A DNA stretch of 64,000 bases from Candidatus Daviesbacteria bacterium (GTDB lineage Bacteria > Patescibacteriota > Microgenomatia > Daviesbacterales > UBA10151), in contig JACPKM010000001.1 of the NCBI GenBank assembly GCA_016187025.1, positions 171,188-235,187 of the forward strand, written 5' to 3'. The notes below the pieces were generated by a model. It saw only the letters and a list, made by a program, of their open reading frames with translations. It searched no databases and was not told the DNA's origin. Made by a program: the position numbers and the translations under genes. Of the stretch, positions 7,495 to 60,383 are shown in pieces (position 1 is the stretch's first letter; each line of letters starts with the position of its first letter).

Positions 7495-8553
7495 ATGGAA
7501 CCGCATCCAATACCACAAAATATTACCTCCTTTCAATTTAAGTTGATTGGGGATATGACTTTAAAGCAATTTATCTACCTTGCTACTGGGGTGGGAATAG
7601 CTTATTTAACATTTATTTTTTTAGGAGCAAGTATACCCATAATTGCCTGGCCGGTTATTATTTCCAGTTCTCTACTTGGAGTTGCATTTGCTTTTTTACC
7701 TGTTGGTTATAGGTCTTTGGACCACTGGATGATTGCTTTTATGAAAGCAGTTTATTCTCCAACTAAAAGAGGTTGGAAGAAAAGCGGAAAAGATTATAAA
7801 AACGAGCCTCTTTTTAATAGCAGACTGTCTATGTTTTTGCAGGTCACCTCTACTGCTGCTGTCAGTCAGACAACCACTCAGGTACCGCTTGCTCAACCAA
7901 GTATTAACCAGGAAGAAAAACCTGCAAAACCACAACAAGATGTTTTACCTTCTTCAGAAGAGTTACAAAAAACAGTTGAACTGGCCAAACAAGCACAGGA
8001 TCTGCAAAATCAGATTGTAGAAAATGAAAGGAAACTTACCCAAATTAAAGTAGCAGCCAGCAAACCTAGCCCAATTCCGGTTGACTATTCACAAGAAATC
8101 AAAACCATCCTCGAAAACCTTAATAAACTGTTAGAAAAAGCATCGGCAATAAAGAACCAGTTATCCCAGTTGGAACATCAAGAACAGCACAATATGAAAA
8201 ATATTCTGGTTGGGACAACTCCAGTAAGGATTGTCGCTCCATCAAAACCAAAACAAACTCCACTCACTCTGACAAGTTCAGCAAATGTTATTAATGGAAT
8301 TGTTAAAGATGCGGAAAACAACTACCTAGAGGGAGTGGTGGTGGTTGTCTACGATAAAGAGGGCTTGCCGGTAAGAGCCTTAAAAACAAATAAACTGGGG
8401 CAGTTTTCCAGCGCTACTCCCCTACCAAATGGAACTTATACAGTTGAGCTGGAAAAAGAAAACCTTTTCTTTGACGCCTTACAAATGGAGCTTGCTGGAG
8501 AAATACTTCCACCGCTTATGATAGCAGCAAAAAGAGGTGTAATTAACAGTTAA
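7495..8553 (+). CDS. PrgI/VirB3-like 2-TM protein extended by coiled-coil and C-terminal carboxypeptidase-regulatory-like beta-sandwich
   Basis: N-terminus FKLIGDMTLKQFIYLATGVGIAYL plus a second TM resembles the PrgI/TcpD/Orf17 (VirB3-like) family, which precedes VirB4 in Gram-positive T4SS. The middle is a Q/E/K-rich coiled coil. The C-terminus VINGIVKDAENNYLEGVVVVVYDKEGLPV...NGTYTVELEKENLFF is CarboxypepD_reg-like. Confidence 0.45.
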   Translation: MEPHPIPQNITSFQFKLIGDMTLKQFIYLATGVGIAYLTFIFLGASIPIIAWPVIISSSLLGVAFAFLPVGYRSLDHWMIAFMKAVYSPTKRGWKKSGKDYKNEPLFNSRLSMFLQVTSTAAVSQTTTQVPLAQPSINQEEKPAKPQQDVLPSSEELQKTVELAKQAQDLQNQIVENERKLTQIKVAASKPSPIPVDYSQEIKTILENLNKLLEKASAIKNQLSQLEHQEQHNMKNILVGTTPVRIVAPSKPKQTPLTLTSSANVINGIVKDAENNYLEGVVVVVYDKEGLPVRALKTNKLGQFSSATPLPNGTYTVELEKENLFFDALQMELAGEILPPLMIAAKRGVINS

Positions 8554-8554
8554 T

Positions 8555-9304
8555 ATGAATACAACACAGCAACACTTACCAATAAGAGATATTAAAGATG
8601 ATTTAGTGCTGCTAAAAGACGGAGGCTCGGCGCTGGTACTGCAAGTAGGCGCAGTTAATTTTGGATTACTCTCAGAAAGAGAGCAGATTGCAATTATTTC
8701 CTCTTTTGCCCAGATGCTAAACTCGCTGTCTTTTAGTATACAAATTCTTATTCATTCTGAAAGATTAAATCTTTCCTCTTATACCCAAAAATTAGAACAG
8801 GCACAGAAAATGCAAACTAATCCGTTACTGTCTAGTATGATAGGCCGGTATAAAACTTTTATACAAAAAATAGTAAAAGAAAATGATGTCCTGGATAAAA
8901 AATTTTATTTGGTAATACCAGCCTACAGCATAGAGTTGGGGATAGGGTTGTCAACTGAGGATATGTTTACAAAAGCCAAAACACTGCTTCTCCCCAGAAA
9001 AGATCAGATTATAAGACAACTTAGCAGGATTAGTCTGAGGTCAAACCAACTAAGCACCAGGGAGCTGGTTTTACTGTTTTATAACATCTATAACTATTCA
9101 CCAAATCAGCTAACTCTAACAAAACCAACCCAATCCCAAATTCAGGTAGACCAGGTACAGCTCAAAAACCCCCAACCTGCTCAGCCACCTGTACCTTCAC
9201 AAGTTGAACAAACGGTGTCAGTTATTACTCAACCAATCAGAGATACCTACACCAGCCCCAGCAAACGGGTGCCCTTTGTAGTTGAAGAGCTGACAGACAA
9301 TTGA
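8555..9304 (+). CDS. VirB4 N-terminal domain encoded as a separate ORF (split VirB4, N-part)
   Basis: IKDDLVLLKDGGSALVLQVGAVNFGLLSEREQIAIISSFAQMLNSLSFSIQILIHS resembles the extreme N-terminus of Gram-positive VirB4 proteins (PrgJ/TcpF/ConE-like). The ORF ends in TGA 4 nt before the ATPase ORF. The two lengths together give about 848 aa, typical for VirB4. Confidence 0.4.
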   Translation: MNTTQQHLPIRDIKDDLVLLKDGGSALVLQVGAVNFGLLSEREQIAIISSFAQMLNSLSFSIQILIHSERLNLSSYTQKLEQAQKMQTNPLLSSMIGRYKTFIQKIVKENDVLDKKFYLVIPAYSIELGIGLSTEDMFTKAKTLLLPRKDQIIRQLSRISLRSNQLSTRELVLLFYNIYNYSPNQLTLTKPTQSQIQVDQVQLKNPQPAQPPVPSQVEQTVSVITQPIRDTYTSPSKRVPFVVEELTDN

Positions 9305-11116: not shown

Positions 11117-12952
11117 ATGGACAAAGCGTTTTTAATTGCAGCATTACAGGCAAAGATCAAAAGGCCCTTTAGACAAAGTTACGGAGGAAAACCATATAAT
11201 GAAATCTTTGAGCAGCTCAGAGCTGATAAGACATTTGCCGGTGTTAGCAGAAACAATCCCGATGATATCAGCCTAGCAGAAAATATTCTCGGCATATTAC
11301 TCACTTCTGAGACAAAAAGGTCTGCTCAGCCCCAAGACGAACCTGCGGAGGAAAAACAGAAAAAAGAGAAAAAAGCAGAATGGAGACCTAAGCTAGACTC
11401 ACCCAGTCAAACCAAAAACACCACCCCAGAACCTGAAGCATTTAGTATACCCTTGCCTATTTCAAGCTTTACAAAAACAGTTTTAAGTAAAACTTTAATA
11501 TTTATCAGAAAATCAGTGGGTAAATACATCAGTCTTTCCGGATTTGTTTCCTCAATAGAAAAACTTGTTTATCCAAACACCTCCGGTTTATCAGAACATA
11601 GAGACTATAGTTTGGGACCTGGGTCAAATATACCTAACAGAAATGGTTTTTCGCTTTTTTCAACAGGTGGTTTTAATTTTTTCAAAGGACGGGCATTGAT
11701 AATTTTTTTTATCATTCTTTTTATCATTTTACTAATCGGCATGCTCTCCGGACCAATTACTACACCCAGTAACACTCCGTCTGATATAACCTCAGGAAAT
11801 ATAAATACCTGTCAATTTACCAGAAGTGATCAAAATCCAAAGGAAGCATCTTTTAAAAGTCCCCTGCTTTTGGGCTATATCGAGGAAGCATCTAGGCTTA
11901 CCGGGATACCCCTGGTTGTTTTAGCAGGTTTTATACGAGTAGAATCACCTTCCTCAGTTAATTTTACTGATGAGCAAACAAGAAGCTACAAATGCGCTAT
12001 CAGTCCCACAGGAGCCTTAGGAATAATGCAAATACAACCTGCAGGCACAAGAGGCCATGATGCACCGGCAGTAACAAATGGTGCGGATTTTTTAGGATTG
12101 GATTATCAAACCTTAACGCAAGAAGATTATTGTGACGTAAGGAAAAATATTATTTTAGGAGCTGGGTTTATTTTAAAAAAGATGAGTTATTTAAAATTTG
12201 GAGACGGTACCAAATGGGATCCAAGCTGGACCAGAAACCAAAATGCCATCTATGCACTGGCAGAAAGCTATTATGGGTGTTTAAACTATGGGGGGTCTAA
12301 TCCTTTAAAATGCGATGGGCCATATAACTACGGACAAGATGTCTGGTCCAGTGTTTTAAGTTGTCAGCAAGGAGCTCCTCCTTCCTCAGCAGGTTTTACT
12401 AACCCTGAAGGGTTTGTCTATTATTGCCAGGGTGATCCAAGATGGGATAATAAATCTGGTTGCGGAATAGGTCAGATTGGATGCGGACCAACCTCGCTTG
12501 CAATGGTATTTAGTAGCCTAGGAAAGGCTGTAACCCCAGACCAGATGTATCAAACATTCTCGTCACAAAACAGGATTAACTGCGCTGTAGGTAGCTATAT
12601 GGAAACTATCCTCCAAGACAGGGCCTGGATGAGGGATCAAGGGTTTGAAGTAGGCCCAAGGGTGGTTGCAAATGGAAATCTTGATTTACCCAGAGCCAAG
12701 CAATACTTGGCAGAAGGCTATTTAATTGTTGGTTCTTCCCAAACTTTTCCCAGTTATATATCCAACAGGACTTTCCCTCATATATTTGTGGTTAATGGGG
12801 TAAATATAGAAGATAAAACCTTTAGTATCCGAGACCCGGCAAACTGCGACTACTCAACAGGAGTAGAGGTTGTTAGCAGGCAAATTAAACCGGCAAATGG
12901 TATAGGAGGGTTAAATTGGGCCTATGCTTACCCAATTAAAAGGATAAGATAA
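11117..12952 (+). CDS. VirB1-like bifunctional cell-wall hydrolase: lytic transglycosylase (SLT) plus C39-like cysteine peptidase, membrane anchored
   Basis: Cytoplasmic N-terminus, then one TM (ALIIFFIILFIILLIGML). SLT motifs E-S...AISPTGALGIMQIQP and YNYG. C-terminal CQGDPRWDN...GCGPTSLAMVFSSLG matches Peptidase_C39_2. The architecture parallels TcpG/CwlT/PrgK. Confidence 0.7.
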   Translation: MDKAFLIAALQAKIKRPFRQSYGGKPYNEIFEQLRADKTFAGVSRNNPDDISLAENILGILLTSETKRSAQPQDEPAEEKQKKEKKAEWRPKLDSPSQTKNTTPEPEAFSIPLPISSFTKTVLSKTLIFIRKSVGKYISLSGFVSSIEKLVYPNTSGLSEHRDYSLGPGSNIPNRNGFSLFSTGGFNFFKGRALIIFFIILFIILLIGMLSGPITTPSNTPSDITSGNINTCQFTRSDQNPKEASFKSPLLLGYIEEASRLTGIPLVVLAGFIRVESPSSVNFTDEQTRSYKCAISPTGALGIMQIQPAGTRGHDAPAVTNGADFLGLDYQTLTQEDYCDVRKNIILGAGFILKKMSYLKFGDGTKWDPSWTRNQNAIYALAESYYGCLNYGGSNPLKCDGPYNYGQDVWSSVLSCQQGAPPSSAGFTNPEGFVYYCQGDPRWDNKSGCGIGQIGCGPTSLAMVFSSLGKAVTPDQMYQTFSSQNRINCAVGSYMETILQDRAWMRDQGFEVGPRVVANGNLDLPRAKQYLAEGYLIVGSSQTFPSYISNRTFPHIFVVNGVNIEDKTFSIRDPANCDYSTGVEVVSRQIKPANGIGGLNWAYAYPIKRIR

Positions 12953-13877: not shown

Positions 13878-14978
13878 TCAACTTAATCTTACAGGCATAA
13901 TTATATATTGCAATCCCTGCTCTCCAATGGGCTTTATCAAAGCCGCCGACAGCTGTCCTGATAGCTCAATCATTACTTGACTTGTAGGCGAGGCAGCAAC
14001 TGCATCTTGTAAAAACTTGGCATTAAAAGCAACTTGTAAATCTTCTCCCTCGATTTGCCCTTCTACCTCATTTTGCTGGCTACCTAACTCTTTTGCGGAA
14101 GACTCTAAAACAAGCTTACCTTCTGACACCTTAAACACAATAATATTTGCCTCACTTCTGGCAAACACTGAAGCCAGCTTTACCGCTTTTAAAATCTGGT
14201 CTTTATCAACTACTGCCCGGGTTATCAGCTGTGTGGGAATAATTTTTTCCCAAGAAGGAAATTGTCCTTCTATTAAACGGGAGGAAACTATTGTCTGGCC
14301 AATAGAAAATATAATCTGGTTTTGATTTACAGAGGTTGCAATACTTATTTGCTCTGCAGCTTCTTCTGAAATCACCCTTAAAACCTCTTCAAAGGTTTTT
14401 TTGGGAATTAAACTTTTAAACTCTTTGGTATTTTCTGGCAGACTCACTTGTCTGTGCGCCAACCTGAACCCATCGGTTGCCACAAGGTCAAGCTTATCTT
14501 TAGATGCATGAGTTAAGATTCCCGTTAAAACAGGCCGTCCTTCATCAACCGCTGCTGAAAAAAGAATTTGCGAGCAAGACACTAAGACGTCTTTTTTAAA
14601 CACTATCCCTTCACTGCCTGGCAGGGGAATCGCAGGAAACTCAGAAGCTGAAATGCCATTTACCGTAGCTTTAAACTTACCGCTAGTTATTTCTAAAACA
14701 TCACCCCTTGATTCAAGCTCAACTTTAGAAGAACCTATTCCCGAGATAAGCTCAACGATTGTTTTTGCTGGAACAGTTATTTCTCCTTCTTCTAAAATAT
14801 CTGCAGGGATTTGTTTTATTACTCCAATTTCTAGATTTGTCCCTGCAATTTTAATTTTCTTATCTTGAGCTGATAAGAAAATATTATCTAAAACAGGCAG
14901 CGTTGATTTGACTCCTACAGATCTTGAGACTGCTGATAATGGAGGCAGTAAGTCTTGTTGTAATACTGATAGCTTCAC
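13878..14978 (-). CDS. dnaN: DNA polymerase III beta sliding clamp
   Basis: MKLSVLQQDLL...LPVLDNIFLSAQDKKIKIAGTNLEIGV is the beta-clamp N-terminus. Size and domain organisation are typical. It lies downstream of dnaA. Confidence 0.9.
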   Translation of the reverse strand: MKLSVLQQDLLPPLSAVSRSVGVKSTLPVLDNIFLSAQDKKIKIAGTNLEIGVIKQIPADILEEGEITVPAKTIVELISGIGSSKVELESRGDVLEITSGKFKATVNGISASEFPAIPLPGSEGIVFKKDVLVSCSQILFSAAVDEGRPVLTGILTHASKDKLDLVATDGFRLAHRQVSLPENTKEFKSLIPKKTFEEVLRVISEEAAEQISIATSVNQNQIIFSIGQTIVSSRLIEGQFPSWEKIIPTQLITRAVVDKDQILKAVKLASVFARSEANIIVFKVSEGKLVLESSAKELGSQQNEVEGQIEGEDLQVAFNAKFLQDAVAASPTSQVMIELSGQLSAALIKPIGEQGLQYIIMPVRLS

Positions 14979-14983
14979 TAAAA

Positions 14984-15433
14984 TTACTCCTTCCGGGCAG
15001 ATACAAAGCGGTTGATCTCCTCTTCGGTCACCTTAATCAACCGGAAATGAATCTTTCCTTGTGTAATGAGGTTTTTAATATGTTTTTCCTCATCAGTCAA
15101 GATGTAATTAATCCCAGACTTCACTTCAATAAAGTCGATACGCTCATTATTTTTAATACCAATAAAATCAATTGGCCACCCTAAGGGCACTATCCTGTCA
15201 TAATCATACCTTAGCTCAGCATATGTCAAAAGCTCTGCCATTTTTCCTTTTTGTGGGTTTATAGAGCCTTGAATGGTTTGTAAAACCCTAGCAGGCAAGT
15301 CCTGAACTCCCTTGTATAAATCTATTAAATCTGTAGGGATATCTTGGGCTTTTTTTGAATGAAGTCTTCCTAATAAATAAGCTACTGCTAAAAAAAGTAT
15401 AAATAATCCTGCCAGAACCAAATTCTTTTCCAT
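14984..15433 (-). CDS. Membrane-anchored PD-(D/E)xK (Hjc/restriction-endonuclease-like) fold protein
   Basis: N-terminal TM. Motif IDFIGIKNNERIDFIEVKSG (D...E-V-K) resembles the Hjc/VRR-NUC catalytic core. It is inserted between dnaA and dnaN. Confidence 0.35.
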   Translation of the reverse strand: MEKNLVLAGLFILFLAVAYLLGRLHSKKAQDIPTDLIDLYKGVQDLPARVLQTIQGSINPQKGKMAELLTYAELRYDYDRIVPLGWPIDFIGIKNNERIDFIEVKSGINYILTDEEKHIKNLITQGKIHFRLIKVTEEEINRFVSARKE

Positions 15434-15616
15434 AAGTTTTCAACTTATAAATTAGATTATACCTTACTTTTTAATACAGTAGTGTTATTAATATAGTCTG
15501 TGGATATGTTAATAACAACTTTTTTCAGGTTCACCTTTCACCTTTTTTTCGTGTTAACGGCTTGTTGAGAAATTGTGGATAACTGGTGGAAAAAGTGGAT
15601 AACTGGTGGAAAAGTC
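15434..15616. promoter_or_regulatory. DnaA-box cluster / candidate oriC element downstream of dnaA
   Basis: TGTGGATAT at 15499-15507, TGTGGATAA at 15574-15582, and GTGGATAA again at 15595-15602. These sit within a direct repeat, gtggataactggtggaaaa, present twice (15576-15594 and 15596-15614). An AT-rich stretch at 15440-15540 is a possible unwinding element. Confidence 0.6.
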
Positions 15617-16930
15617 TTAAATCAACCTTTGCTTGATCTCGCCAATAACCCTTTGTATCTCCTTGTCACGAGAAAGCAGGGTTTTAATTTTGTCCCGGCC
15701 ATGCATAATAGTGGTGTGGTCCCTGCCTCCCAGCATCTGTCCCACTCTTTCTACAGTTATATTTAGTTCTTCGCAAAGAAGGTACATAGTAAGATGCCTT
15801 GGTAACACAAGCCCCTTTTGTCTTTTTGGACCAGTCAGATCTTTTTGGGAGATATCAAAATACTCGCAGATGGTTGTAAAAACCCTTTTTTGGTCGAAGC
15901 GGGTAATTCTTTGAGTTGAATCCTGTAAAAACGGACTAACATTTTGGATAGTTGGTGCCAGGTTTTGAGCGTGTAGCGCCTGAAGGATTTGAACCAATTT
16001 TCCCTCCAGCTCCCTGATATTAACATCTAAAGAAGAAGCCAGTTGCTTTAATACTTCCTCGGGTAACTCTTCATCTTTCTCTGCGCATTTAGCGCGCAAA
16101 ATCGCCACTCTGGTATCAAAATCCGGAGGTTGGATATCCAGCATCAACCCGCCGGCAAACCTGGATTTTAGACGATCTTCCAGTTTAACTATCTCGTGGG
16201 GAGTCCGGTCTGATGTTAAAACCATTTGAGCGTTTTTCCCCTGCAGCTCATTAAATGTATGGAAAAATTCTTCCTGAGTCCCTTCTCTGCCGGAAAAAAA
16301 TTGAATATCATCGATCAGCAAAAGGTCAATTGAACGGTATTTGTTCCTTAGCTCCCCCATTTTGTGTTGCTGGATTGCAGAGACGTAGTCATTCATAAAT
16401 TTTTCTGAGGAACAATAAATAACCTTTAAACGAGGCTTATTTTTTAAAAGAGCATGACCTATCCCAAGCATTAAATGTGTTTTCCCGACACCTGTTCCCC
16501 CATAAAGAAACAGGGGGTTATATGAGATGCCGGGGTTTTGTACCACTGCCTGGGCTGCAGCAAAAGCGACATTGTTTGATGGTCCAACCACAAAGTTTTC
16601 TAAAGTATATTTAGGATTTAATTGAAAAGCTGGGGCGGCAGGGGGCTGAAAAAAAACCTCTTCTGTAACTTCGGGCTTAGCTAAGTTTTCTTTGACCACA
16701 AATTCTACAACAACCTTTTTATTCAACATTCCTTCAAAGGTGGATTCAATTAAGGGTTTATGCCTTTGATTTAAAGTTTCTTTAATAAAGGCATTAGGGG
16801 TGGAAAGGATCACTTTATCTTCAGTGACCTCTTTTAAGCTGGTTTTTAAAAACCATGCCTTTAAATTGGCGCTGCTAACTTGAGGCTTAATAGTTTCCAG
16901 AAATCTATGCCAGAGCTTTAAATTATCCAT
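15617..16930 (-). CDS. dnaA: Chromosomal replication initiator protein DnaA
   Basis: AAA+ Walker A GGTGVGKTHLM, Walker B LLLIDDIQF, and the C-terminal DnaA-box-binding HTH (LTMYLLCEELNITVERVGQMLGGRDHTTIMHG). Confidence 0.95.
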   Translation of the reverse strand: MDNLKLWHRFLETIKPQVSSANLKAWFLKTSLKEVTEDKVILSTPNAFIKETLNQRHKPLIESTFEGMLNKKVVVEFVVKENLAKPEVTEEVFFQPPAAPAFQLNPKYTLENFVVGPSNNVAFAAAQAVVQNPGISYNPLFLYGGTGVGKTHLMLGIGHALLKNKPRLKVIYCSSEKFMNDYVSAIQQHKMGELRNKYRSIDLLLIDDIQFFSGREGTQEEFFHTFNELQGKNAQMVLTSDRTPHEIVKLEDRLKSRFAGGLMLDIQPPDFDTRVAILRAKCAEKDEELPEEVLKQLASSLDVNIRELEGKLVQILQALHAQNLAPTIQNVSPFLQDSTQRITRFDQKRVFTTICEYFDISQKDLTGPKRQKGLVLPRHLTMYLLCEELNITVERVGQMLGGRDHTTIMHGRDKIKTLLSRDKEIQRVIGEIKQRLI

Positions 16931-37401: not shown

Positions 37402-38493
37402 TTATCTGTCAATAGCCAAGGATAGGTTTGGATTGGCTTGAAGGGTTAATATATCTGGTGTAGGTTTTTGGTAATATGCTGCAGCGGCAATCATGGCTGC
37501 ATTGTCTGTACATAAATAGGGTGGTGGAACGTGTAGTTTCACTTTTAACTTTTCACTTTTAACTTTTAACTTGCGAACCAGTTCCTGGTTCGCCGCTACC
37601 CCTCCTGCAACAATAATTTGTTCAACTTCATACTTTTGGGCTGCTTTGACAGTCTTTATAACTAGGGAATCTATGATAGCAGCTTCCAAAGAAGCAGCCA
37701 GATCTTCTTTTTTGGCCCTAAGATCTTCTTTTAAGATGTTTGCAAAAGCGGTTTTGAGTCCTGAAAAAGAAAAGTCCAGATTTTTAGAATTCAGCATTGG
37801 CCGTGGAAAATTGAAAGCTTTAGGATCTCCTTTTTGGGCAAGTTTAGCAATTTGCGGGCCTCCGGGATAAGGGTATCCCAAAAGTCTGGCGCATTTATCA
37901 AAACACTCTCCTGCGGCATCATCCCTGGTTCCTCCTAAATACTCATATTTGCCATGCGAAGTAAACAAAACTAAATCAGTATGCCCTCCTGAGACCAGCA
38001 GGCCAAGGCAGGGAAATTTTGGCGAACTATTCCCAATCCAATTTGCATAAAAATGTCCTATTAAATGGTTTACAGGAATTAAAGGTTTGTTCCAAATATA
38101 AGCTAGAGTTTTGGCAGTTTCTACTCCAACAAGCAGAGAACCAATCAGTCCTGGTCCATATGTGACTGCTATTGCGTTGATATCCTGTCCCCTGTAACCT
38201 GAAACCTGTAAACTTTCCTGTATCACTGGAATAATAGATTTTAGCTGTTCCCTGGCTGCTTGCTCGGGAATCACACCACCATATTTTGCCTGTAAATCAG
38301 CTGATGAAGCCACTACATTGGATAAAATAGTTATCCGGTTATTTTCCTGTCTCAGGACCGCCGCGGCAGTCTCATCACAGGAAGTCTCTATCCCTAAAAT
38401 TGTTTTGTACATAAGCTGAATTTTAACAGATTTAGGGGGGAGAGTTACATTGTTCCCCAGGTGACGGTAGATAACCCTAAACTTTCCCCCCAC
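37402..38493 (-). CDS. tsaD: tRNA N6-adenosine threonylcarbamoyltransferase TsaD (Kae1/Gcp)
   Basis: N-terminal ILGIETSCDETAAAV, ASKH-fold motifs, and conserved His pair (HLIGHFY). The true start is MYKTILGIETS at about 38412; the ORF track extends further upstream in frame. Confidence 0.9.
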   Translation of the reverse strand: MGGKFRVIYRHLGNNVTLPPKSVKIQLMYKTILGIETSCDETAAAVLRQENNRITILSNVVASSADLQAKYGGVIPEQAAREQLKSIIPVIQESLQVSGYRGQDINAIAVTYGPGLIGSLLVGVETAKTLAYIWNKPLIPVNHLIGHFYANWIGNSSPKFPCLGLLVSGGHTDLVLFTSHGKYEYLGGTRDDAAGECFDKCARLLGYPYPGGPQIAKLAQKGDPKAFNFPRPMLNSKNLDFSFSGLKTAFANILKEDLRAKKEDLAASLEAAIIDSLVIKTVKAAQKYEVEQIIVAGGVAANQELVRKLKVKSEKLKVKLHVPPPYLCTDNAAMIAAAAYYQKPTPDILTLQANPNLSLAIDR

Positions 38494-38520
38494 CCGGGAG
38501 GTGAATTAGCTTGGCATCAC
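38478..38520. repeat. Copy 1 of a ~40-nt repeat (small hairpin + TTGACA/TTGGCA-like hexamer) upstream of tsaD
   Basis: cacccgggaggtgaattagcttggcatcac. Related copies at 41583-41625 and 42708-42760. Confidence 0.5.
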
Positions 38521-38539: not shown

Positions 38540-39151
38540 CTAAAAACCCCGTCTAGGAAATTGTAGGTGCTTATCTAAATAAATCATTTTAGCGAGTGCT
38601 GCATAATCTTTGACCGATGAGTGATTTGATTGGCGGCTCCTTACCTGTAACTCCTCGGCTACTAGTAGATAATAATCAAGTCTAATGGGTGCTGTTTTCG
38701 GATTTCTTGTTTCCAAATCTGCAAAGATTTTATTAATCATCATGTAAACATTTCTATCACTTACCCATGGAACTAGTGAAGGGACTAATATTAATCTTGA
38801 TTGTTCAAAGGTATCCATTGCTCTCTGAGCCTGCTCTAAACCCTCAGTATCAATTCTGTGAAAAAAGACAAACAAATCAGCTCTTCCTGATTCCAAAGGC
38901 CCATCTGTTAGAAGAATATTCAATCTGGAATCAGCAGCTGATAGATCGGGAAGAAGCTGTACTGAGGTTTTATGATAATCTTCTAATAAGCGTTGCAATT
39001 TTGGGAAATTATGTCTGGATAAATCAACAACACCTGTTCTTACGTCTAGATTTGATAAGAGGCATGCAACATTTGCTAAAGTGGTTGTTCACCCTAAACC
39101 ACCACGCTCACTAATAAAAGACACCGTTTGAGGGGTACGTTCTATATACAT
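38540..39151 (-). pseudogene. ParA/MinD-like P-loop ATPase gene interrupted by an in-frame TGA at the Walker A lysine position
   Basis: ATG at 39151 gives MYIERTPQTVSFISERGGLG, then TGA at 39089-39091, then TTLANVACLLSNLDVRTGVVDLSRH...LNILLTDGPLESG. This aligns to the deviant Walker A xKGGxGK[ST]T with K replaced by a stop codon and the signature Lys replaced by Arg. The downstream ParA-like Walker B (DGP) is present. Confidence 0.5.
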
Positions 39152-39260
39152 AAGAGGGATTATATCAACAAATCAGATTAATATCAACTATAGGTTATTG
39201 TGAGCATTAGCAATTTTTTTGAAATTTCTTGCTTAGATAATCTCTGATACAATCTTATTT

Positions 39261-40004
39261 ATGGAATCAATCTGGATATTCATTGCAGCTTTTATTGCCA
39301 CAACTATAAGTGCCATGTCAGGAGGAGGTTCTTCAATAATTGCTGTTCCAATCTTTCTATCTATGGGAATTGTGTTGCCAATGGCCGTGGCGATACAATC
39401 CATAAGTGGTGTTTTTTGGGTGTTGCCGTCTGCATTTAATTATTTAAAGGGAAGAAAAATTGAGTGGATGTTTTTACTCCTTTTTGCAGGGATTGGAACA
39501 ATTGGTTCTTACTTCGGCGCACTTGCTATCACAAGTTTTGACCAAAAGCCCCTCGCGGCAATAGTCGGGCTGCTTATTTTATTTCTCATTGGATTCATGA
39601 ACTACCAAAAAAACCTTGGGTTACAAGAGCAACATGTTAGGTCAAAGTTTAAGGAAAGGCTTGCATACGTTTTCTCCTTCCCAATGGGATTTTATGAAGG
39701 ATTTTTTGGGTCAGGAAACGGCATTTTCTTTACGCTTGTTACAGCGTATACCAAGGGCTTTGATTTTATTGACGCGCTTGGCTATTACTATGCGGTTGCT
39801 TTTCCATGGGTTGTTGTTGGAGCACTTGTGTTGATCTCGAAGGGGTATTTTGATCTCTCGTTAATGGTGCCAGCAGTCTTAGGTTCTCTTGTTGGTGGTT
39901 ATATTGGATCTAAATATGCAAGATTGAAAGGAAATAAGTTTGTTAAAATAACTTTTACAATAATCGGTATTATTCTTGGTCTTAAACTATTATTAGGAAT
40001 ATAA
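39261..40004 (+). CDS. TSUP/TauE-SafE family (DUF81) membrane exporter-like protein
   Basis: 247 aa with about 8 TM. The N-terminus IAAFIATTISAMSGGGSSIIAVPIFLSMGI is typical of TauE/SafE. It has an internal duplication architecture. Confidence 0.75.
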   Translation: MESIWIFIAAFIATTISAMSGGGSSIIAVPIFLSMGIVLPMAVAIQSISGVFWVLPSAFNYLKGRKIEWMFLLLFAGIGTIGSYFGALAITSFDQKPLAAIVGLLILFLIGFMNYQKNLGLQEQHVRSKFKERLAYVFSFPMGFYEGFFGSGNGIFFTLVTAYTKGFDFIDALGYYYAVAFPWVVVGALVLISKGYFDLSLMVPAVLGSLVGGYIGSKYARLKGNKFVKITFTIIGIILGLKLLLGI

Positions 40005-40135: not shown

Positions 40136-40573
40136 ATGAATACTCCAATATGTGGTTTGTGCGGGAAGAAAAGTAAACTTGTAAAAACCGACTGCTGTAA
40201 TAACTGGATCTGTAACGATGAAGGTAAATATGTGATTTTTTCGTATGCCAGAAATAGTTGCTCACGTAATCATCGGCGATTCACACTTTGTGGATATCAT
40301 AACACCGAGGATCACAAAAGCAACTGGAAAACATGTAAAAAGTGTGCTAATAGTTTTGATGCTGAAGATTATGCTTGGTACGGAACAAATGAATATAACT
40401 TCGAAAAGCTTCCTGACCCGCCTAAATTTGATCCGACCTATTGCTCTTTGTGCGGGGTTATAATCAACCGTGGAGAAGACGGATATACGCGACTACCCGA
40501 TGGGAAATTTCTGTGCGAATCGTGCGGATGGAAACATATGAATGAGCAAATAAAAGATGTTGAGAAGATATGA
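40136..40573 (+). CDS. Cys-rich multi-zinc-ribbon protein (hypothetical)
   Basis: Six CxxC-type pairs: C6/C9, C67/C70, C104/C107, C124/C127 and others. It overlaps the downstream RhuM gene by 4 nt. Confidence 0.45.
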   Translation: MNTPICGLCGKKSKLVKTDCCNNWICNDEGKYVIFSYARNSCSRNHRRFTLCGYHNTEDHKSNWKTCKKCANSFDAEDYAWYGTNEYNFEKLPDPPKFDPTYCSLCGVIINRGEDGYTRLPDGKFLCESCGWKHMNEQIKDVEKI

Positions 40574-41565
40574 AAAAAGAAATTAAAAAATCGCAAATTG
40601 CCATTTACCAGGTAATTGGCGATAAGCAAAAAATCCGAGTCAGAATTGAAGACGAGAATGTGTGGCTGACGCAAAAATTAATAGCTGAGCTTTTTGATGT
40701 TGATGTGCGTACGGTGAACGAACATTTAAAAAATATATTTTCGGAGGTAGAACTGGATGAAAGTTCAGTTATCCGGAAATTCCGGATAACTGCCGATGAT
40801 GGTAAGACATATGACACAAAACATTATAATTTAGATACGATTTTGGCAGTTGGTTATCGTGTGCGATCTGAGCAGGGAACGCAGTTTCGCAAATGGGCAA
40901 CAGAAAGACTGCGGGAATATCTTATCAAAGGGTTTACACTGGATGACGAACGACTTAAGCAAGGTGGTGGCAGGGCTCGTTACTTTCAGGAATTACTGCA
41001 GCGGGTACGTGATATCCGTAGCAGTGAGCGGATGTTTTATCAGAAAGTAACAGATATTTACGCAACGAGCATTGATTATAAACAAGAGGCACAGCTTACT
41101 CAGAAGTTTTTTGCTACAGTGCAGAATAAAATGCACTTTGCAGTACACGGACATACGGCAGCCGAGATTATAAATAAGCGAGTGGATAGTAAAAAACCAT
41201 TGATGGGTCTGATGAGTTTTAAAAGCGATTATATAACCGCTGACGATATAGTAGTGGCTAAAAATTATTTAAGTGAAAATGAACTCAATCAATTAAATAT
41301 GATCGTTTCGCTATATATTGATTTTGCGGAGTTGCAAGCAAGCAGCGGCCGTCTTATGAAAATGCAGGATTGGATCAACAAACTGGACGAGTTTTTAGCT
41401 ATTAGTGAAAAGAAATTACTTCACAGTTCCGGCAGGGTGAGCGCAAAACAGGCAGAAAAGAAAGCATTGGTGGAATATGAGAAGTATCGCAGAGAACGGG
41501 ATGGAAAATATATTTCAGATTTCGACCGCGAAGTGAAAAAACTTTTGAAGAGAGCAAGGAAATAA
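40570..41565 (+). CDS. rhuM: RhuM-family (virulence-associated, Fic-neighbourhood) DNA-binding protein
   Basis: Strong match to the RhuM family as I recall it: GTQFRKWATERLREYLIKGFTLDDERLK, IRSSERMFYQKVTDIYATSIDY, FFATVQNKMHFAVHGHTAAEII, AKNYLSENELNQLNMIVSLYIDFAE. Confidence 0.8.
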   Translation: MKKEIKKSQIAIYQVIGDKQKIRVRIEDENVWLTQKLIAELFDVDVRTVNEHLKNIFSEVELDESSVIRKFRITADDGKTYDTKHYNLDTILAVGYRVRSEQGTQFRKWATERLREYLIKGFTLDDERLKQGGGRARYFQELLQRVRDIRSSERMFYQKVTDIYATSIDYKQEAQLTQKFFATVQNKMHFAVHGHTAAEIINKRVDSKKPLMGLMSFKSDYITADDIVVAKNYLSENELNQLNMIVSLYIDFAELQASSGRLMKMQDWINKLDEFLAISEKKLLHSSGRVSAKQAEKKALVEYEKYRRERDGKYISDFDREVKKLLKRARK

Positions 41566-41582
41566 ATGATTAAATTATCGGT

Positions 41583-41625
41583 GAAATCCCACCCGGAGGG
41601 TGTATTAGCTTGACACCTGTCATCT
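41583..41625. repeat. Copy 2 of the ~40-nt repeat, followed by a duplicated tsaD 5' fragment (41640-41697)
   Basis: gaaatcccacccggagggtgtattagcttgacacctg. Then ctaaaattattttgtacataagctgaatttta (41660-41697) is near-identical to the tsaD start region at 38395-38432. It would encode MYKIILGVETSCDETAAIR* on the minus strand. Confidence 0.5.
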
Positions 41626-41904
41626 TATCGCTGCAGTTTCATCACAACTGGTTTCAACCCCTAAAATTATTTTGTACATAAGCTGAATTTTATTAGATAG
41701 CTGCAAGTTACTGACGGACAACTTTACTTATTGGTGATTCTTTTTCTGTCATGGTCATGTTGCAGATTATATCAGAGAGCAATAGTCTTACCAAATGCAA
41801 TCATCAGGGGAGGCCTTTTGTGCAACGATTATAGGGCAAAATCTGGGAGTTCTCAAGCAAGCACTATGAAATAGGATTAAAGCTAAATTTAATCGCTAAT
41901 TCAG

Positions 41905-42707: not shown

Positions 42708-42760
42708 AATGAAATCCCACCTGGTGAAATCCCACCTGGGAGGTGGATAGCCTGGCACCT
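42708..42760. repeat. Copy 3 of the ~40-nt repeat with internal tandem duplication
   Basis: gaatgaaatcccacctggtgaaatcccacctgggaggtggatagcctggcacct. Confidence 0.5.
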
Positions 42761-49786: not shown

Positions 49787-50410
49787 TTATGCTGACAATT
49801 TAATTTCTGCCAAGGTGTTATGTGTATGTAACCCGCCTTCTGGAATAGATTCAAATAATTTAATAGATTTAATTTCTATTGGGTCAAATAAACCGTGGGA
49901 CTGTCCCGCTTCGCGGGAAAAACCGTGGGACTGTTTTCCTTCGGAAAAGAAAGAAGAAGTTGTATTTTGCAAAAGCTTTTCTTTCAGGCTGGTTAACTCA
50001 AAATATTTATCAGCTTTGGCAACAGCAATATGAGGAATGTAGCGCCTCTCGTCTACGGGAAGCTGTAGTTCTTTTAACCCATCTTTTACTCTTTCTTCCA
50101 TAAGAAGTAATTTATCAATTTCTCCTTTTACTCCTACCCAAATAGTGTGAGGATGATGAATATTAGGAAAACCGTCAATGTATGCCGGAATAACAACAAA
50201 ATTGGATATCCCAGCAACTGCATTACTAATTACTTTTATTAAGTCGTTTTTTATCTCTTCTGGTTGCTCTCCTACAAAAGCGATAGTTAAATGAAGTTTA
50301 TCGTTATCAGTAAGTCTAATATCAGGTAAGATCTGTTTTATCTTTTCTTGAACCAGTTTTAACTCTTGTTTATTTTCATCAGGAATTTCAAGGGCGATGA
50401 AAAATCTCAT
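49787..50410 (-). CDS. thpR: RNA 2',3'-cyclic phosphodiesterase / 2'-5' RNA ligase (2H family, ThpR/LigT)
   Basis: Two H-x-[TA]-x motifs (LHLTIAFVG and PHIAVAKA). Contains a short in-frame tandem repeat (GKQSHGFS / AGQSHGLF). Confidence 0.8.
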   Translation of the reverse strand: MRFFIALEIPDENKQELKLVQEKIKQILPDIRLTDNDKLHLTIAFVGEQPEEIKNDLIKVISNAVAGISNFVVIPAYIDGFPNIHHPHTIWVGVKGEIDKLLLMEERVKDGLKELQLPVDERRYIPHIAVAKADKYFELTSLKEKLLQNTTSSFFSEGKQSHGFSREAGQSHGLFDPIEIKSIKLFESIPEGGLHTHNTLAEIKLSA

Positions 50411-58425: not shown

Positions 58426-58755
58426 ATGGCAAAAACAAAGATTGATAGTAGTAGTACCTCTGCTCTAAGGGTTAAGCCTTTAATGGGTTATGTGCTGGTA
58501 TCCCCTCAAGAAGCAGAGAGTAAGTTGCCTTCCGGAATAATTCTGCCAGAATCTGCTCAAGAAAAACCAGCTCAAGGTAGTGTAATTGCTTGTGGTGATG
58601 ATATGGTTTTAGAAAATGGAAAAGTATTAAAATGTCCTGTGAAAGTTGGGGATGTTGTGGTATATAAGAAATGGGGTGGAGATGAGATAAAAATTTCCGG
58701 AAAAGAATATAAATTAGTAAAATTTGATGATTTGATGGCAATATTGGAAGGGTAA
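58426..58755 (+). CDS. groS: Co-chaperonin GroES (with ~15-aa N-terminal extension)
   Basis: [42 protein letters not shown] matches GroES. It is directly upstream of groEL. Confidence 0.9.
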
Positions 58756-58760
58756 AAAAT

Positions 58761-60383
58761 ATGGCAAAGATACTTTTATTTGATAGTAATGCTAGAGAAA
58801 AACTTTTAAAGGGTATTAATACCTTAACTGAGGCTGTGGCTTCCACTTTGGGTCCAAAGGGGAGAAATGTTGCTTTAGATAAAAAATGGGGTGCTCCCCA
58901 GGTTGTCCATGATGGGGTGACTGTTGCCAAAGAAATAGATTTGGAAGATCCATTTGAGAATATGGGTGCCCAACTTGTTAAAGAAGCAGCCTCAAAAACA
59001 AATGATGTTGCAGGAGATGGAACCACTACTGCTACCATTTTAACTCAAGCTATAGTTTCTGAAGGGTTGAAAAACATCCAGGCCGGAGCAAACCCAATGG
59101 TTCTAAGAAAAGGGATTGAAAAAGCGGTTGATACTTTGGTGGTAGAGCTGCGGAAGATGAGTAAAAAAGTAACTACTCCAGAAGAAACTACCCAGGTTGC
59201 AACAATTTCTGCCCAAGATGAAGAAATTGGGAGGTTAATCTCTGAAGCTATTGCAAAGGTTGGCAAAGATGGAGTTATAACTGTGGAAGAAGGCAAGGGG
59301 TTAGAGATGAATGTTGAGTATAAGGAAGGAATGGAATTTGATAAGGGGTTTGTTTCCCCATATTTTGTAACTGATACAGACAGGATGGAATCATCTGTAG
59401 AAGATGCTCTGGTATTAATTACTGATAAGAAAATCTCTGCTGCACAAGACTTGGTTCCATTTTTGGAAAAATTTGTCCAGGTTTCAAAGAATTTGGTCAT
59501 CATTGCAGACGAAGTTGAAGGTGAAGCTTTAGCATTATTGGTAGTTAATAAACTAAGAGGAACCATCAACGTGTTGGCAGTAAATGCTCCTGGATTTGGC
59601 GATCGAAGAAAAGAAATGTTACAAGATATTGCTATTTTAACCGGTGGAACAGTTATTTCTGAAGATACTGGAAGAAAAATTGACTCAGTAGAACTGGAAG
59701 ATCTGGGAAGGGTTGGTAGGGTAACTTCCACTAAAGACGAAACTTTAATTGTTGATGGAAAAGGGCAAAAATCAAAAATTGATGCCCGGATTTCTCAAAT
59801 AAGAAGAGAGCTTGATGCAACTGATTCTGAATTTGACAAAGAAAAACTGCAGGAAAGACTGGCAAAGCTAACTGGTGGAGTAGCAGTCATTAATGTTGGT
59901 GCAGCAACAGAGATTGAGATGAAGGAGAAAAAAGAAAGAGTGATTGATGCTGTGGCTGCAACAAAGGCTGCAATCGAGGAGGGAATTGTTCCGGGTGGAG
60001 AAGTGGCTTTGCTCCGTGCTGCTAAAGCTTTAGACTCTCTTAAATTAGAAGGTGAGGAAAAAACCGGAGTTGAAATTGTTAAGAAAGCAATTGAGGGTCC
60101 ATTTAATAAGTTAATGGAAAATGCCGGATTTAATGCCGGTATGATGATGAAGGTTGTAATGGATGTAACAGATTCATTTGGAGTTGATGTTTCAGACGGA
60201 GCTGTAAAAGATTTAGTAAAAGCCGGGGTGATTGATCCGGTAAAAGTTACCCGTTCTGCTTTACAGAACGCTGCATCGGTTGCCATAATGGTGATGGTTA
60301 CAAATGTTTTAATAACAGATGCACCGGAAAAATCCGGCCCCGCCGGACCTCAAGTGCCAGCAGGCGGCATGGGTGAATATTAG
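58761..60383 (+). CDS. groL: Chaperonin GroEL
   Basis: Canonical GroEL throughout ([19 protein letters not shown]-binding GDGTTTAT). The C-terminus ends GGMGEY without extended GGM repeats. Confidence 0.95.

Follow-up and report, generated by a model that had tools for sequence, protein, structure and literature searches.

A probable recent pseudogene of a very rare ParA/MinD-related family, interrupted by TGA at the P-loop position, in a Candidatus Daviesbacteria genome

The stretch of Candidatus Daviesbacteria DNA analyzed here, a window of 64,000 nucleotides (64 kb), carries a ParA/MinD-related gene in which a single TGA interrupts an otherwise continuous reading frame (Table 1). Re-translation of 38540-39151 on the minus strand, i.e., from 39151 to 38540, yielded MYIERTPQTVSFISERGGLG, a stop, and then TTTLANVACLLSNLDVRTGVVDLS and the remainder of the protein, with the TGA at 39091..39089 as the one internal stop. 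This is an exact match to the translation given in an earlier interpretation made from the letters of the DNA alone (the sequence-only reading).

Table 1. Positions of the interrupted gene, its parts, and the surrounding islet in the 64-kb window.
Feature	Position	Strand	Description
ParA/MinD-related gene	39151..38540	-	ATG 39151..39149, TAG 38542..38540; 203 codons, 612 nt
Codons 1-20: MYIERTPQTVSFISERGGLG	39092..39151	-	First beta strand and glycine-rich loop, degenerate Walker A
In-frame TGA, codon 21	39089..39091	-	Arg (CGC) in relatives, Lys in canonical ParA/MinD
Codons 22-203, same frame	38543..39088	-	TTTLANVA helix; KLQRLL, ILLTD, FFHRIDTEG, RLILVPS, YLLVAEELQVR
152-aa ORF from TTG (codon 52)	38540..38998	-	GenBank hypothetical protein HYW42_01315, MBI2600565.1, Candidatus Daviesbacteria bacterium
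Promoter-like site TTGATA-17 nt-TG-TATAAT	39159..39187	-	11/12 consensus, extended -10; ends 7 nt before ATG
tsaD real 5' end with -10 box	38362..38431	-	Direct-repeat arm of islet
Duplicated tsaD 5' fragment	41629..41698	-	17 codons and -10 box, 83% identical; other arm
TauE/SafE-type membrane protein	39261-40004	+	TauE 123 bits
Cys-rich 145-aa protein	40136-40573	+	Several CxxC pairs
RhuM-family protein	40570-41565	+	RhuM 365 bits; PADLOC candidate defence family PDC-S05, 456 bits
Local repeat copy A	38489..38516	+	Core CCCACCCGGGAGGTG; 23 nt past the gene's stop
Local repeat copies B, C	41588-41615, 42731-42758	+	Core CCCACCCGGGAGGTG

The gene lies in an accessory islet of 3.1-3.3 kb adjoining tsaD. 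The sequence-only reading had described an island-like region with flanking repeats, and the islet is indeed bracketed by a duplication of the tsaD 5' end and by copies of the CCCACCCGGGAGGTG repeat. This repeat of ~28-40 nt, with alternating GGTG/CACC arms, has three copies, all on the plus strand, against none expected by chance; it is confined to a 4.3-kb stretch of the 64-kb window and its copies sit at gene-cassette junctions, where they may mark serial insertion sites or represent a REP-like element. The tsaD duplication around the islet looks like a 5'-end insertion that brings or leaves a surrogate gene start. No integrase was found between the tsaD repeats, and a search for an empty site using the neighboring 158-aa ORF returned short contigs only. 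Among the other islet genes, the Cys-rich 145-aa ORF had no match in Pfam, NCBIfam, or PADLOC; its stop codon and the start codon of the RhuM-family gene overlap in an ATGA, and the pair may therefore constitute a unit.

Elsewhere, dnaA and dnaN are located together (13878-16930, minus strand), which places the origin region of the chromosome within the window. The ~30 annotated of roughly 55 window ORFs include no canonical parA/parB (soj/spo0J) pair. A type IV secretion-like cluster on the plus strand comprises genes for a PrgI-like protein (7495-8553), a TrsD/TraD-like protein (8555-9304), a VirB4-like ATPase (9309/9316-11108; NF045971, 377 bits), and a peptidase C39/SLT protein (11117-12952). 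What had been read as the N-terminal fragment of a VirB4 gene does end in TGA, but it is the separate TrsD/TraD-like gene rather than part of a TGA-interrupted VirB4: the VirB4-like gene starts 4-11 nt later with its own GAGAGG ribosome-binding site, and the pair is a natural two-gene arrangement. Opposite the GroEL gene (58472-60379 on the minus strand vs 58761-60383 on the plus strand) there are three long antisense ORFs of 188, 228, and 163 aa, which almost certainly do not encode proteins and only mirror the chaperonin sequence.

Several comparisons place the two sides of the TGA in one gene. The frame stays open for 182 codons past the stop (P ~5e-6 by base composition), compared with 19-20 stops in the other two frames. 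A tblastn search with an intact relative (P0002) as query returned a single HSP across the TGA (residues 5-197, E 2.7e-23), and BLASTP of the window protein against P0002 gave 33% identity over 200 residues (E 1e-27) in an alignment that likewise spans the stop. Searches of PDB sequences with phmmer aligned residues 9-46 with Thermus Soj. In the HMMER alignment to T. thermophilus Soj, codon 21 occupies the P-loop lysine column of KGGxGK[ST]T, and in that between the family profile and ParF it again falls on the P-loop lysine; the signature-lysine column of the same alignments holds an arginine in the window gene. The sequence-only reading was hence right to place the TGA at the Walker A P-loop position and to note an arginine in place of the signature lysine. 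It had also called this placement unusually precise, a view that does not survive statistical scrutiny: 72 other codons of the gene are also one substitution away from a stop, and the chance of a random nonsense mutation falling on codon 21 is ~1-2%, as assessed post hoc. The precision also means much less given that the family has an arginine at this site.

The promoter of the gene appears intact. Its promoter-like site has counterparts in two relatives, which share the layout: TTGATT-17-TATAAT-6-ATG in contig L007 and TTGACT-17-TATAAT-6-GTG in contig L009. Such short spacing is common in the window. Shine-Dalgarno motifs were detected in 8 of 55 window genes, and -10-like hexamers peak 6-7 nt before starts (13 of the 33 found); in 16 of 56 genes such a hexamer lies 5-9 nt ahead of the start. 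Leaderless initiation is therefore locally normal. Boxes resembling TAnAAT occur near starts at, for example, 39261, 40136, 49787-50410 (minus strand), 55088, and 61845. The pattern implies that leaderless mRNAs would be widespread in this Candidatus Daviesbacteria genome, and the ATG at 39151 would thus be the ancestral start of the gene. The apparent leaderless state of many genes matters for gene calling in such genomes.

Relatives of the gene are extremely scarce. Searches of ~15 billion proteins in total recovered three lineages besides that of the window, i.e., four overall. A word-indexed phmmer search of 5.8 billion clusters matched the window locus itself alone. When 1.84 billion representatives were searched exhaustively with phmmer, two genuine relatives emerged: P0002 (326 aa) and P0004 (125 aa). 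Three further matches (P0003, P0005, and P0006) were discarded as repeat-protein false positives. Follow-up searches added P0007, which is 86% identical to P0002, and P0008, a longer form of P0004. A profile search of the family contributed nothing new. No relatives were detected in GTDB genome contigs, viral contigs, or plasmids, JGI metagenomes supplied one protein of the KGGVGR family (the L010 ORF) and no relative of the family itself, and a literature search on the KGGVGR and GGVGRTT motifs returned nothing relevant.

The intact relatives read FTSERGG[VI]G-R-TTALANIA. Their P-loop residue is arginine, encoded by CGC, in all three other lineages (L007, L009, and L008/L021). The window gene retains the glycine-rich loop and the TT of this motif, reading ERGGLG-stop-TTT where the relatives read ERGG[VI]GRTT. 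As the family aligns, both Walker A lysines are already arginines. The TGA had been interpreted as replacing the essential P-loop lysine; given the CGC codon in three of three other lineages, it replaced an arginine instead. Beyond the loop, the motifs KLxRLL, LLT[DE], FFHRIDxEG, RLILVPS, and YLxLxEELxxR are invariant in the family, and the contigs of the relatives are low in GC (36.7-37.2%), like the window (38.6%). A C-terminal domain of ~125 aa is common to P0002, P0007, and P0008 and is absent from the window copy, with no trace elsewhere in the 64-kb window. The window lineage may be an outgroup to the other three, so the absence of this domain could be the ancestral state.

We compared the family with the ParA/MinD superfamily by profile and structure searches. 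All of the models matched by the window protein are of ParA/MinD type (AAA_31, CbiA, ParA/NUBPL, BcsQ, and MinD), and the Pfam, NCBIfam, and PDB profile matches are limited to residues ~8-60, with Pfam and NCBIfam scores under the curated cut-offs. For Pfam CbiA, AAA_31, and ParA, the window sequence scores 15.5-17.4 bits (23.7 when a lysine is modeled in) against cut-offs of 25.4-27.1. Neither the window protein nor its relatives carry xKGGxGK[ST]T with both the signature and the P-loop lysine. Against the PDB, the family profile matched ParF best (E 2.3e-4 over 63 residues), and all lower-ranking matches were ParA/MinD/ArsA/Mrp-type proteins. Of the earlier proposal that the region aligns with ParA/MinD, the relationship to ParF thus stood once the family profile was used, and recognition by curated Pfam and NCBIfam models did not.

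The remainder of the protein carries the family-specific motifs LLT[DE], FFHRIDxEG, RLILVPS, and YLxLxEELxxR. It had been proposed that this downstream part retains ParA-like Walker B and switch regions, but no profile alignment extends that far. Behind a hydrophobic strand, the family conserves an acidic residue (LLT[DE]), and the switch I aspartate position, also beyond the reach of the profile alignments, is not conserved (VVDLS, TAME, and TTPP). An AlphaFold model of intact P0002, built on a shallow alignment of 4 sequences, has a pLDDT of ~50-80 in the N-domain and 49.6 overall. Foldseek returned 142 matches to it at E <= 1e-3, and all 50 of these that were listed are ParF, Soj, MinD, FleN, FlhG, BcsQ, HypB, Cfd1, or NifH, with ~215-255 aligned columns and TM scores of 0.55-0.62 on smaller targets. 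A ParA/MinD fold over the whole domain is therefore predicted by a model of modest confidence of the intact relative, and by that model only. For the window protein itself, the corresponding model had a pLDDT of 58.9, and its matches were confined to generic P-loop GTPase folds, with the CENP-M pseudo-GTPase at the top; this model is of low confidence and was not relied on.

The other lineages indicate that the gene is mobile and that it has been disrupted more than once. In both L007 and L009, the gene sits between sucC and sucD, accompanied by different toxin-antitoxin modules. The two intact copies (L007 204-1184 vs L009 329-1309) differ little (dS 0.055, dN/dS 1.4), compared with flanking sucD (dS 1.18, dN/dS 0.09) and the sucC tail (dS 0.92). 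Such a low dS in the gene between highly diverged flanks indicates recent movement between diverged genomes, and suggests that the gene was recently replaced by horizontal transfer at one and the same sucC-sucD location, with different toxin-antitoxin modules. Short-term purifying selection on the gene is not detectable from these two copies. Both are stop-free, where 3.1 stops would be expected (P 0.045), and their sole internal indel is in-frame. In the third lineage (L021 1-135, L008 1-60), nothing of the gene remains upstream of the arginine codon; its place is taken by the end of an IS30-family transposase gene and ~34 nt. This junction falls within ~2 codons of the window TGA site and is followed by 307 open codons. 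The 35-aa transposase tail was assigned to the IS30 family by tblastn against plasmids; it had no NCBIfam match, being too short.

Before the fate of the window gene is considered, the nature of both the protein and the stop has to be settled. That the region is unrelated to ParA/MinD and its Walker-A-like string a chance resemblance is very improbable. The sub-threshold Pfam and NCBIfam scores, which cover ~40 residues, would suit this explanation, as would the generic P-loop GTPase folds matched by the window-protein model. They are outweighed by the exclusive ranking of ParA/MinD/ArsA/Mrp proteins behind ParF in the profile search, by the hhalign match to the KGGVGR-family alignment (probability 97.4%, E 1e-11), and by the uniform identity of the listed structural matches to the intact-relative model (50 of 50). 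We give almost no credence to a sequencing or assembly error that masks a true CGA, AGA, or AAA codon. TGA is one base away from CGA or AGA, and we found no other support for an error. The 152-aa ORF is present in six Logan contigs from different sequencing runs, five of which extend to the 5' part of the gene; in these five (SRR12113383, -424, -430, -431, and -384), which were assembled independently, all 612 nt including the TGA are 100% identical, making assembly error very unlikely. The TGA is also in the GenBank record, where the annotation places the ORF start downstream of it, and there is no homopolymer at the site.

Decoding of this TGA as an amino acid, which would give the full length of 203 aa through near-cognate read-through, a suppressor tRNA, selenocysteine insertion, or reading of TGA as Gly or Trp, is also improbable, and no positive evidence for it was found. 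It would be consistent with a frame that continues exactly past the stop and with the intact promoter; in addition, an A follows the stop codon, a context that would be compatible with low-level leaky termination. Against it, TGA terminates 12 of the 57 long stop-to-stop ORFs in the 64-kb window, including complete conserved genes, and interrupts no other gene there. The sequence-only reading took TGA to be a genuine stop in this genome, and this view holds well: TGA ends dnaN (13878-14978, with all three domains complete), yidC, and an ABC transporter gene. When TGA was read as sense across the window, genes gained few codons and ORF pieces were fused at the ParA-like locus only. The TGA-terminated conserved genes and the lack of other internal TGA codons indicate that this Daviesbacteria genome uses the standard code, and the same observations rule out genetic codes 4 and 25. 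Code 25 had been raised as a possibility for relatives; for the window genome it is excluded, and glycine (or tryptophan) would not give back the arginine of the family. At the TGA site, the relatives have always Arg and never TGA, Cys, Trp, or Gly, including the Cys or Sec that would be expected in homologs of a selenoprotein, and we know of no UGA reassignment that supplies arginine. A SECIS element had been judged unlikely from the outset, and none was found: there is no SECIS-like hairpin or other Rfam match around the TGA, and the 91 nt around and after it fold no better than shuffled sequences (z -1.05). The 64-kb window contains no tRNA genes. Two further routes around the stop were rejected. 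For a programmed frameshift (prfB-like), the ribosome would meet a stop after 5 codons in the +1 frame or 22 codons in the -1 frame, and homology stays in frame 0; the alternative frames being so soon closed, a frameshift would yield no product. A GTG that overlaps the stop (G-GTG-A) opens a frame that ends within 22 codons and shows no homology. Hence the in-frame TGA gives no reason to propose that this Candidatus Daviesbacteria genome reassigns a stop codon or uses selenocysteine.

We consider the locus to be a recently inactivated copy, i.e., a pseudogene, of a very rare, mobile, fast-evolving, ParA/MinD-derived gene family (probability roughly 0.7). The sequence-only reading posed the right choice, between a fresh pseudogene and a two-part product, and the former is the more likely outcome. 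Also in its favor are the absence of the ~125-aa C-terminal domain, the IS30 disruption in L021/L008, the weak short-term constraint on the family, and the position in an islet beside a RhuM-type candidate defence gene. The P-loop arginine codon CGC may have changed to CGA, a synonymous step, and then to TGA by a C-to-T transition. Transcripts are probably still made from the leaderless promoter, which is intact, and translation from the 5' ATG would end after 20 residues, so that no P-loop protein would be made. The 152-aa hypothetical protein annotated in GenBank probably represents its tail end. Apart from the stop, the 203-codon frame is intact, all family-invariant motifs are kept, and the promoter is near consensus, which suggests either that the mutation is recent or that the locus is still used in some form.

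The latter possibility would take the shape of a truncated product without the P-loop, made and used from the 152-aa ORF starting at TTG 38998, which would be reached by re-initiation after the 20-codon leader peptide, with loss of the nucleotide-binding loop tolerated or even favored. We judge it unlikely. The 182 codons past the TGA are open with every family motif in place, the 152-aa ORF is annotated in GenBank, and the L021/L008 lineage has independently lost everything upstream of the same arginine codon to IS30, with 307 codons still open; a P-loop-less remainder could thus have been retained by selection. However, the TTG at codon 52, which is the first in-frame start and lies 31 codons past the TGA, is preceded by no Shine-Dalgarno motif, nor does a -10 box lie at the distance usual in this genome, where ATG starts behind such a box predominate; a restart there was rejected for want of such a motif or a convincing promoter. 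The called starts also differ between the disrupted lineages (codon 52 in the window vs ~codon 66, a GTG), and a protein begun at the TTG would be missing the P-loop together with strand 1, helix 1, and strand 2 of the predicted fold. Without the first two strands and the first helix of the Rossmann-like core, such a product would be unlikely to fold. Open downstream frames are, moreover, equally expected from recent inactivation. A related proposal holds that loss of the P-loop is not random decay and that the family is a ParA-derived module of a selfish or conflict type, in which the loop is inactivated again and again. It draws on the two independent disruptions within ~2 codons of one Walker A arginine, each with a long open frame downstream (182 and 307 codons), on a dN/dS of 1 or more between the intact copies, and on their movement between genomes, but it is unlikely; if it were true, the nucleotide-binding loop would be costly, or the P-loop-less derivative would be the useful form.

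With the window copy taken as a recent pseudogene, the locus most likely amounts to a small novelty in its family and an ordinary event in its TGA. The family, which is found in low-GC contigs and is horizontally mobile, most likely encodes a ParA/MinD-fold P-loop protein with ERGGxGRTT. It is extremely rare and was previously unannotated, and what it adds is a set of putative ParA/MinD-fold proteins with arginine in place of both Walker A lysines.

As for the TGA, the window copy resembles ordinary CGA-to-TGA pseudogenes in having a single early in-frame stop, an arginine codon at this position in relatives, and a location in an accessory islet. No essential difference from ordinary nonsense pseudogenes is apparent, the one curiosity being the second lineage broken by IS30 near the same codon.

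Among named systems, the ParF/ParA type Ib partition ATPases (TP228 ParF, 206 aa) are similar to the window protein in size and have the same strand-loop-helix N-terminus. ParF is the best match in the PDB both by sequence profile (E 2.3e-4) and for the P0002 model in Foldseek (4dzz, E 2.2e-6, TM 0.59 on target). Unlike in ParF, both Walker A lysines are replaced in the family, and conservation of the switch and Walker B motifs is not apparent. The family gene also occurs solo in chromosomal islets, without an adjacent parB/parG-like partner or centromere repeats.

A closer likeness is to the KGGVGR-motif variant AAA ATPases of the ParA/MinD branch (NF047398), which are the best NCBIfam match of the intact relatives. 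Both have arginine for the P-loop lysine; the GG[VI]GRTT of the relatives fits the GGVGR[ST]T of the variant, and the window has TGA there. The string GGVGRTTALANIA is identical in P0002 and in a true member, the L010 ORF (483-2405, from a JGI metagenome), which carries C-terminal TPR repeats and scored 144.6 bits as a positive control. The window protein (19.6 bits), P0002 (28.8), and P0007 (27.2) do not reach the cut-off of 90, and the match of the intact relatives covers the N-terminal 32 residues only. We aligned L010 with eight plasmid proteins (9 sequences); these KGGVGR proteins are large and multidomain, one of them with a TIR annotation, and several are encoded behind an MqsA-type or HTH gene. 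The hhalign match of the family to this alignment extends over 67 N-terminal columns, and that of the C-terminal halves is colinear but weak (probability 10%). Later segments correspond in order with weak similarity, xFFHRIDxEG to xFxPNxQxxxG and RLILVPS to xxxxPSxV. Unlike NF047398, the family has arginine at the signature lysine too (ERGG rather than KGG), is without the DFDLEAPG and IDSRTG motifs, and is small (203-326 aa), with another C-terminal domain in place of TPR, TIR, or large extensions. By score, then, the family would not count as a member of the KGGVGR variant, and the profile and model comparisons together point to a divergent offshoot of the ParA/MinD superfamily that is closest to this variant. 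Both are found in accessory, conflict-type settings beside toxin-antitoxin or MqsA-like genes.
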